From the IMG/VR virus record IMGVR_UViG_2690316345_000006, positions 1 to 5,320 of that record: DNA of 5,320 nucleotides, one strand, 5' to 3'. Every line of letters starts with the position of its first letter. Positions within the stretch are counted from its first letter, which is position 1. Both the position numbers and the translations under genes were made by a program. Shown here in pieces: positions 3,338 to 4,018 of the stretch. Origin of the DNA: a virus. Its lineage: Duplodnaviria; Heunggongvirae; Uroviricota; Caudoviricetes. A model generated the notes under the pieces. It worked only from the letters and a program-made list of their open reading frames with translations. It was not told the origin of the DNA and did no database searches.

Positions 3338-3888
3338 TTTACCCAACGAACACAGGAAAAAGCGGAGAGCACCTTCGTCTCACCACGCTGGAAAGTGTCT
3401 GGATTCAGGGGAAACTACGTATGTGGGGGCGCTGGTCGTATATTGGCGGCGGTAAGACGGGAAATATGTTCAACCAGTTGCTGACCTCTAAAAAGCTGAC
3501 AAAAACGGCAATTAACGAGGCGCTCCGGAGGATGAAAAAAGCAGGTCTGGACAAACCTAAACTTGAGGCTTTTTTGCGGGATATGATCAACGGCAAGCAA
3601 AAAAGCTGGCTGGTGCATTGTACCGATTCAGAGGCGTTAATAATCGACAGGGTTATTGGTGAAGTACTGGCAGGTTATCCCGGGCTGCTCAATGTTCTGA
3701 GTCAGCGTTATGTGGGGCGGGGGATGACTAAGCGCAAAATGGCTGAACTGCTGAATGATGCACATCCGGAATGGAGTTTAAGAACCTGTGAAAGACGCAT
3801 TGAGCATTGGCTAAAGGTGGCAGAATTTATTTTGTACAAACCAATGGTTATGGCTTTTGGTATAGAGAAAAAAGTTATTGCTTTTTGA
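3334..3888 (+). CDS. Q-like late-gene antiterminator (184 aa from ATG 3334)
   Basis: ATG 3334 overlaps the YbcO-like stop as ATGA and follows GGAGAAAGGA; it sits between the nin-type genes and the terminator/tRNA cluster, the canonical Q position; family assigned by context and loose recollection. Confidence 0.7.
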   Translation: MIYPTNTGKSGEHLRLTTLESVWIQGKLRMWGRWSYIGGGKTGNMFNQLLTSKKLTKTAINEALRRMKKAGLDKPKLEAFLRDMINGKQKSWLVHCTDSEALIIDRVIGEVLAGYPGLLNVLSQRYVGRGMTKRKMAELLNDAHPEWSLRTCERRIEHWLKVAEFILYKPMVMAFGIEKKVIAF

Positions 3889-3964
3889 CGTAAAAACTGC
3901 TTCAATTCCGGTAAGCTTCGCAAAGCTGTATCGCGAGGCGAACCAAACGCATGAACTTTACCAG

Positions 3965-3988
3965 AACCCGCCATTGAGCGGGTTTTTT
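3965..3988 (+). terminator. Rho-independent terminator after Q (tR'-like, or terminator of the Q operon)
   Basis: AACCCGC-CATTGA-GCGGGTT followed by TTTT, about 77 nt after the Q stop. Confidence 0.6.
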
Positions 3989-3989
3989 A

Positions 3990-4018
3990 TTGCGGAATTA
4001 ATTACGGACCGTTATTAT
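3990..4018 (+). promoter_or_regulatory. Candidate sigma70 promoter just upstream of the tRNA genes
   Basis: TTGCGG (3990-3995), 17-nt spacer, TATTAT (4013-4018); predicted start about 4025, tRNA begins at 4028. Confidence 0.4.

Follow-up and report, generated by a model that had tools for sequence, protein, structure and literature searches.

Late Transcription behind a Divergent Q Gene

The locus considered here raises the question of where late transcription begins in a lambdoid prophage whose Q gene is followed at short distance by a terminator hairpin, a promoter-like element abutting that hairpin and tRNA genes. It lies in a stretch of 5,320 nucleotides (nt) of caudoviricete DNA (positions 1 to 5,320 of IMG/VR record IMGVR_UViG_2690316345_000006; hereafter the window). 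An earlier note on this DNA had offered two readings: either a short unit of late promoter (PR'), Q-utilisation site (qut) and terminator (tR') with a second promoter for the tRNAs behind it, or a promoter-like element that is itself PR', with the terminator after the tRNAs as the one modified by Q. Our analysis favors the former, and we consider it highly probable that the region holds two back-to-back transcription units: an ordinary lambdoid late-gene switch, whose promoter overlaps the end of the Q gene, and then a separate tRNA unit with its own promoter, here termed pT.

The Protein Encoded Upstream Is a Distant Relative of Q21

The first step is the identity of the regulator, encoded by the following feature:

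3334-3888, plus strand: Q antiterminator gene, 184 aa (Pfam DUF1133 and PF06530, phmmer to Q21 structures, gene context); stop codon TGA at 3886-3888

The best Pfam family of the 184-residue protein is DUF1133 (351 bits); it also matches PF06530 with 33.7 bits (E 3.9e-8), above that family's cut-off of 26. A phmmer comparison aligns it end to end with the Q21 structures 6P18 and 6JNX (residues 13-181 against 5-155; E about 4e-4), and in the reciprocal Pfam search Q21 itself scores weakly on DUF1133. Because the PF06530 cut-off is passed, the Q21 alignment is full-length and Q21 in turn weakly matches DUF1133, we call the protein Q; its placement as a distant member of the Q21/Q933W family (PF06530) is justified by these sequence matches. 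The gene stands after those for DUF1367 and YbcO and before late genes on the same strand. In the literature searched, DUF1133 is listed as Q by HHpred, with nothing beyond that. As an aside, contigs labelled as 'Candidatus Nanosynbacter' (a metagenome-assembled genome) and 'Vagococcus' (our loci L213 and L227) encode this enterobacterial prophage Q at 86% and 57% identity, respectively; they are probably mis-binned or contaminant contigs.

A Promoter-Like Block with a Putative Pause Element Travels with the Q Gene

To look for elements linked to this Q, we collected 80 loci from viral contigs with relatives of the DUF1133 Q at 80-100% identity, and a further 35 Q loci, one genome per species, down to 52% identity, from Klebsiella, Enterobacter, Pantoea, Pluralibacter and others. 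One layout, TTGnnn-N17-TTnAAT-N5-TAnGCT, surrounds the stop codon of Q in 71 distinct sequences; their hosts include E. coli, Shigella, Salmonella, Citrobacter, Klebsiella, Raoultella, Enterobacter and Pantoea, among others. In the window this layout corresponds to the following elements:

3868-3873, plus strand: A-tract, a possible UP-like element (proposed role); A-run conserved in the window's group of loci
3878-3883, plus strand: putative PR' -35, TTGCTT, in the last Q codons; TTG near-invariant in the 71 loci
3884-3900, plus strand: PR' spacer TTTGACGTAAAAACTGC, 17 bp, in the predicted position of the Q-binding element, after the phage 21 layout
3901-3906, plus strand: hexamer in the PR' -10 position, TTCAAT, atypical; TTnAAT in nearly all 71, the third base being free
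3912-3917, plus strand: putative sigma-dependent pause element TAAGCT, identical to that of phage 21

The block TAnGCT is the most conserved part of the 71 sequences, with its T, A, G, C and T invariant save in one of them. A TG at -15/-14 before TTCAAT is likewise conserved, as is, in the window's group, the block A[ACT]AAACTGC of the spacer region; the A-run is kept there although it lies inside the divergent 3' coding sequence of Q. Moreover, in relatives with Q genes at 79-87% identity and Q 3' ends at no more than 55-60%, the non-coding sequence corresponding to 3896-3986 is 86-98% identical to that of the window. The layout and the terminator behind it are kept in Q loci in which a tRNA is seldom near: an ileZ-type tRNA occurs within 110 nt past the terminator in only 10 of the 69 terminator-bearing loci among the 71. 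Hence, the unit appears to travel with Q, as a Q-utilisation site must.

A characterized counterpart is available in phage 21. Its record OL657228, annotated with literature references, gives a -35 of TTGACA, a Q-binding element (QBE; ATTGAGCA and AATGAGCA) within a 17-bp spacer, a -10 and the start, followed by a sigma-dependent pause element (SDPE) TAAGCTG at +2 to +8 (TAAGCT at +2 to +7), a terminator whose end is near +50 and, directly behind it, tRNA-Asn and tRNA-Thr; for the start, the QBE and the SDPE the record cites experiments. According to Shi et al. 2019 (PMC6606751), the QBE consists of TGAGCA direct repeats located between the -35 and the -10, and the -10-like element causes a sigma-dependent pause at which two Q protomers load. 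In its proposed layout the window agrees with phage 21 in a -35 within or just after the end of a Q gene whose product aligns end to end, a 17-bp spacer in the QBE position, a -10, a start, the sequence TAAGCT of the pause element and a short terminated RNA; in both, tRNA genes come straight after the terminator. Distant DUF1133-Q loci also carry TGAGCA, the core of the QBE in phage 21; it comes right after their -35 and 26 bp (start to start) before TAnGCT, a distance equal to that in phage 21.

The two systems also differ. In the window the Q is only distantly related and filed as DUF1133, the spacer departs from the two phage 21 QBE sequences, the -10 is without an A at -11, and the pause element follows the -35/-10 pair at a distance shorter by 2 bp. 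The RNA is predicted to be about 76 nt long, against about 50 nt in phage 21, and the terminator is a separate hairpin, whereas that of phage 21 is built from pause-element RNA, the same bases forming its 5' arm; finally, the window has pT inserted between tR' and the tRNAs. Measured against TGAGCA and TAnGCT as anchors, the -35/-10 pair of the window type is shifted downstream by 2 bp compared with phage 21, and we therefore place the predicted PR' start on the A of TAAGCT (A3913; range 3911-3914).

Two further candidates in this region were set aside. TAnGCT as the true PR' -10 has no -35 at 16-18 bp, and the same hexamer is the pause element in phage 21; an extended TG precedes it in the distant group only. 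TTGACG at 3885-3890 as a -35 is unconserved in relatives and has no -10 at a proper distance. The earlier note had found no convincing -10 between 3885 and 3960, which is fair for a search by consensus; it nevertheless passed over TTCAAT in the -10 position, whose -35 at 3878 lies just outside that range.

These data bear on the alternative that no promoter exists between Q and the hairpin. The hairpin would then terminate the early operon, the block 3878-3945 would serve another purpose, for example as an element of the 3' untranslated region or a protein-binding site, and the late promoter would lie further downstream. Such a reading can appeal to the missing A at -11 and to a consensus scan that lists no promoter there. 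Yet the TTG/TTnAAT pair at 17 bp, the TG before it and TAnGCT 5 bases on are kept across genera while their flanks diverge, TAAGCT and the TGAGCA spacing are those of phage 21, and there is no other Q-linked candidate, the downstream sequence varying from locus to locus. We therefore regard the absence of a promoter here as very unlikely.

The Predicted Terminator tR' and Short RNA

The predicted PR' transcript would contain two folded elements:

3915-3939, plus strand: 5' stem-loop of the short RNA (GCUUCGC/GCGAGGC), from the minimum-free-energy structure of 3913-3990
3963-3988, plus strand: predicted intrinsic terminator tR' (fold energy; conservation in 69 of 71 loci)

A strong terminator some 77 nt after the Q stop had been claimed from the letters, and the fold bears this out. 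ACCAGAACCCGCCATTGAGCGGGTTTTTTAT forms a stem of 9 pairs (3963-3971 with 3978-3986; GC core 3965-3971 with 3978-3984) around a 6-nt loop, and the T-run at 3983-3988 supplies the last stem pairs plus the tail. Its energy is -13.1 kcal/mol (z = -5.2), and none of 200 shuffles folds as well. As the minus strand is without a T-run behind the hairpin, tR' should act in one direction. A hairpin with a T-run is present in 69 of the 71 distinct Q loci in 36 different hairpin strings, giving a predicted PR' RNA with a median length of 78 nt over the loci, against about 76 nt in the window.

The consensus promoter and terminator scan of the window listed neither this hairpin nor PR' nor pT. For tR' the miss is probably due to a greedy stem extension through A-U and G-U pairs that consumed the T-run; pT was skipped because TTGCGG matches TTGACA at 3 of 6 positions under a scan rule of 4 of 6. 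The silence of the scan on these three elements was not taken as evidence against them.

The RNA of about 76 nt is predicted to consist of the 5' hairpin, a single-stranded middle and the terminator. Of 47 distinct RNAs, 42 have a 5' hairpin beginning at the GCU of the pause element, which comes in two versions that are unrelated in sequence (among loci L216-L236). Searched against Rfam at a permissive threshold, 3885-4027 gave nothing real, the sole match being a 21.8-bit Trp-leader on the terminator. Among known small RNAs (sRNAs), PasA and PasC of enterohaemorrhagic and enteropathogenic E. coli prophages were rejected as the PR' RNA, for they lie on the strand opposite to their neighbors and have other sequences; Esr41 was not found in the window by Rfam. 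A bolder proposal is that the PR'-tR' RNA (about 3913-3988) is no mere by-product of the switch but a conserved trans-acting sRNA of DUF1133-Q prophages across Enterobacteriaceae, comparable to StxS. The occurrence of the 5' hairpin in two versions and the conservation of the non-coding sequence as well as, or better than, the Q gene bear on it; we advance the proposal only tentatively and hold it to be unlikely. A second oddity of this speculative kind is the possibly near-leaderless start from pT described below.

A separate observation concerns the mosaicism of these phages. Blocks of homology to different phages start or stop within a few bases of the tR' hairpin (3963-3990): phages 683R6 and 666R9 match the window over Q and the following intergenic DNA as far as 3986, mEp460 shares 3965-4313, and Stx2 phages share the sequence from 3988 onward. 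Because these blocks break at the hairpin, tR' appears to mark the point at which recombination joined the Q module to that of the tRNAs.

A Probable Separate Promoter for the tRNA Module

Immediately behind tR' lies the second unit:

3990-4018, plus strand: pT, putative sigma-70-type tRNA promoter, TTGCGG-N17-TATTAT (933W homology, conservation)
4019-4027, plus strand: discriminator TCTGCTCCC between the pT -10 and the tRNA, pyrimidine- and GC-rich
4028-4103, plus strand: tRNA with CAT anticodon, ileZ-type (tRNA-Ile in RefSeq; ARAGORN; Rfam 72.5 bits)
4104-4203, plus strand: decayed argN remnant, whose outer arms align with 933W argN and whose middle is replaced
4204-4280, plus strand: tRNA-Arg (TCT), argO-type (ARAGORN; Rfam 67.3 bits)
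4293-4318, plus strand: intrinsic terminator closing the pT-tRNA unit (scan: 8 pairs and TTTTTT)

The promoter-like element that the earlier note saw directly after the terminator is indeed present, with TTGCGG at 3990-3995, a 17-nt spacer at 3996-4012 and TATTAT at 4013-4018, and the first tRNA begins at 4028. As a bare motif it is at chance level: TTG-N3-N17-TA-N2-AT has one match in the window where 0.8 are expected, and it turns up once or more in 113 of 200 shuffles; its significance therefore comes from position and conservation only. As for position, 933W 21082-21110, annotated as 'pT; putative tRNA promoter', aligns base for base with window 3990-4018, with TTGCAG for TTGCGG, an identical TATTAT, a spacer of 17 nt in each and the same 9-nt distance to the tRNA. 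When the window, 933W, Stx2a_1447 and mEp460 are aligned together, column identity averages 88%, and the two hexamers of the promoter and the 17 nt between them occupy identical places.

For conservation, we assembled 51 distinct 60-nt sequences upstream of ileZ-type tRNAs from viral contigs and the collected loci. In 42 of them TTGnnn is followed after 16-18 nt by a TAnnnT ending 7-11 nt before the tRNA, with 25 different spacers, some of them wholly different; 35 of these 42 have exactly the 17-nt spacer and 9 nt to the tRNA. The same geometry was found 0-1 times at displaced anchors and 0.56 times on average in shuffles (maximum 3). Further, in Sy et al. 2020 (PMC7547250), differential RNA sequencing of E. 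coli O157 Sakai gives a primary start for the promoter apparently driving these tRNAs in Sp5, the Stx2a prophage; the Sakai homolog of pT is at about 1,266,727-1,266,765 of NC_002695.2. A literature search on promoters of ileZ, argN and argO gave nothing useful.

It might be argued that TTGCGG/TATTAT is no working promoter but either a chance match, as its expected frequency would allow, or the arm of an RNA stem (GCGGAAU/AUUCUGC) that aids the processing of a read-through tRNA precursor. Pairing of the -35 with the discriminator is in fact predicted, and the changes between the window and 933W keep it. However, in 22 of 40 variants that keep the promoter with the 17-nt spacer the stem is down to 3-5 of its 7 pairs, while the hexamers, the spacing and the 9-nt distance stay; the complete difference of spacers between some loci, the annotation in 933W and the start reported in PMC7547250 point the same way. 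We accordingly rejected the stem as the main constraint on this region, and a non-functional pT strikes us as very improbable, marginally more so than the absence of PR'.

A different view would make TTGCGG-N17-TATTAT the late promoter PR' itself, with Q overriding the terminator at 4293-4318 and the hairpin at 3963-3988 merely ending the Q operon. It is the best consensus-like promoter after Q, a terminator does follow the tRNAs, and the tRNAs of phage 21 likewise lie within the late transcript. Nevertheless, mEp460 has a lambda-family Q (PF03589) in front of the element, Stx2a phages have a methylase gene there, and 933W has a Q21-family Q, its PR' start being mapped elsewhere; as it is found behind unrelated Q families and a methylase gene, it belongs to the tRNA module and is not a Q-specific PR'. 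Q-binding and pause sites must match their own Q, yet a tRNA is close by in only 10 of the 69 DUF1133-Q loci noted above. Moreover, no pause element can follow TATTAT, because the tRNA begins 9 nt after this -10, and the conserved Q-linked block sits upstream, at 3878-3917. This second reading of the earlier note thus falls, and we see next to no chance of its being correct. The first gains from the homology and conservation of pT, the Sakai start and the conserved unit with the phage 21 pause element.

With pT retained as a separate promoter, its start is expected from the sequence within 4024-4028. It may coincide with the mature tRNA's 5' end or lie 1-3 nt before it, which would yield a nearly leaderless precursor. 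As an observation in its own right, the 9-nt discriminators of the window and the 42 related regions are almost all pyrimidine and GC-rich (CCTGCGCCC in 933W), like those of stringently controlled rRNA and tRNA promoters. Within the unit, ARAGORN called no tRNA on 4104-4203, and the closing terminator (-14.6 kcal/mol, z = -3.6) has its homolog in the 'terminator upstream of the stx genes' of 933W. Phage 21 has no promoter between its annotated tR' and tRNA-Asn, the latter starting on the very next base (1221-1424 of our locus L242); its tRNAs would therefore depend on read-through, unlike the pT-driven tRNAs of the window.

Comparison with 933W and Lambda

Aligning the region with phage 21 and 933W, as had been suggested, proved informative on both counts: TAAGCT is the SDPE of the former, and the PR' layout of the latter is similar. 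In 933W an A-run is followed by TTTACG, 16 nt ending in CTGCA, and TATCAT, with the window's TTCAAT in the place of TATCAT; the window's -35, TTGCTT, parallels both this TTTACG and the TTGACA of phage 21. If an offset of +142 is assumed between genome versions, a value that suits both published coordinates together, the PR' start lies 7 nt past this -10 and the 3' end coincides with the final base of the annotated terminator.

The window shares with 933W and Sakai Sp5 homologous pT, ileZ- and argO-type tRNAs and following terminator, and, as proposed here, the same logic, with a short RNA made constitutively from PR' and a promoter for the tRNAs that is independent of it. It differs from 933W in its Q gene, its PR' sequence and its decayed rather than intact argN; the 933W PR' RNA is 258 nt long and processed to the sRNA StxS, against the predicted RNA of about 76 nt here, and the position of stx2AB is taken by genes for TerB and DUF3927. 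The 933W PR' start is mapped about 400 bp upstream of pT.

The PR'/qut/6S RNA/tR' region of lambda resembles the proposed unit in that a constitutive late promoter comes directly after Q, the Q site lies between its two hexamers (-35 and -10), the transcript opens with a -10-like pause element, and lysogens make a short terminated RNA. Its pause element is at +1 to +6 and its terminated RNA is 194 nt long. It differs in that its Q is of the unrelated family PF03589 and in having neither tRNA genes nor a second promoter.

Several points weigh against the arrangement that we propose. At the inferred PR', the base at -11 is T instead of the near-universal A in all 71 sequences; PR' may thus be weak, its start may be elsewhere, or the block may be read by Q and not by sigma. 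Similarly, the conserved TG together with AAAsTGC may be a Q half-site instead of an extended -10. The upstream (3884-3891) and downstream (3892-3899) halves of the spacer, TTTGACGT and AAAAACTG, match the phage 21 QBE subsites at 4 of 8 and 3 of 8 positions, and the base-contacting A124 and R127 of Q21 are R and E in the DUF1133 Q alignment, with T125 kept; in view of these changes and the poor spacer match, a different DNA specificity is expected, and the Q site is assigned by position only. At tR', a strong hairpin need not mean efficient termination, since 933W has one at +25 to +49 and yet its RNA is mapped at 258 nt. At pT, the Sakai start is likely, though not certainly, identical with that of pT. 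The 933W hairpin just mentioned (20724-20748; 1725-1749 of our locus L085) is itself strong, is followed by seven T's and resembles the window tR' stem.

A Plausible Mechanism

The elements of the two units, their order, their homology to annotated parts of 933W and phage 21, their conservation and their linkage can be read from the sequences compared here; from them we infer starts, pausing, Q binding, termination and read-through as follows. Sigma-70 RNA polymerase would start at PR' near A3913, and re-binding of sigma to the -10-like TAAGCT (3912-3917) would briefly hold the polymerase. Without Q, it would stop at tR' and release an RNA of about 76 nt with its 3' end at 3986-3991. Once accumulated, Q would bind the promoter spacer (3884-3900), load onto the paused polymerase and, by analogy with Q21, narrow the RNA exit channel such that terminator hairpins cannot form. 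The Q-modified polymerase would then ignore tR', continue across the tRNA genes, ignore the terminator at 4293-4318 as well and transcribe the late operon, with its genes for TerB, DUF3927, esterase, holin and lysozyme. tR' might also serve as the first barrier to unmodified read-through from the Q operon, and 4293-4318 as a second barrier for the late transcript. Independently, pT would start a few bases before or at the 5' end of the first tRNA, and its transcript would cover the ileZ-type tRNA, the decayed argN and tRNA-Arg(TCT) before stopping at 4293-4318. As pT forms a self-contained unit, a lysogen would make these rare-codon tRNAs without Q.

Source of the DNA and Neighboring Genes

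The source DNA is part of a lambdoid prophage of a Shiga-toxin-type E. coli; a similarity search gave 100% identity of window 3300-4450 to many O111/O26-type chromosomes, and E. coli E2863, RM9322 and RM9131 match this segment at 100%. The gene order in the window is hok/sok, DUF1367, YbcO, the 184-aa Q, two tRNAs, TerB and DUF3927, and in a matching genome the same strand continues beyond the window with esterase, holin, lysozyme and Rz. The genes directly upstream of Q are:

2436-3047: DUF1367
3047-3337: YbcO

A CII-type site (TTGYN6TTGY), as for an anti-Q promoter, has no match anywhere in the window. Toward its ends the window carries other prophage features. A hok/sok-type toxin-antitoxin module lies at 1669-1992, with an Rfam match to sok (RF01794) at 1669-1839 (105.9 bits), a Hok-like open reading frame of 51 aa at 1837-1992 and a terminator at 2063-2080 after it. 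At the other end, STnc100 (RF02076, plus strand, 5050-5242, 145.8 bits) adjoins AgvB, the anti-GcvB sponge (RF02702, minus strand, 5243-5304, 96.5 bits); both are known prophage sRNA genes, and this pair has terminators facing each other at 5213-5230 and 5268-5249.

Implications

Much of this arrangement is already known: pT and the terminators are annotated in 933W, the phage 21 layout is described in atomic detail, and the kind of system is textbook material, a picture that our results leave unchanged. For the DUF1133 branch, however, locating PR', the pause element and tR' may be new. This provides a testable map of the late switch for the DUF1133 Q, a protein still annotated as being of unknown function and often found in the prophages of pathogenic E. 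coli, of Shigella and Salmonella and of genera related to them. Toxin release in Stx phages is governed by the same kind of switch, and the positions of PR', the pause element and tR' would help predict which prophages are still able to fire their late genes. In evolutionary terms, the phage 21 pause element TAAGCT and its spacing to the Q site appear to be kept over a large evolutionary distance while the Q site itself changes, a combination that should be useful for the study of how Q proteins find their promoters. Finally, a separate tRNA promoter would explain how rare-codon tRNAs are expressed in lysogens without induction.

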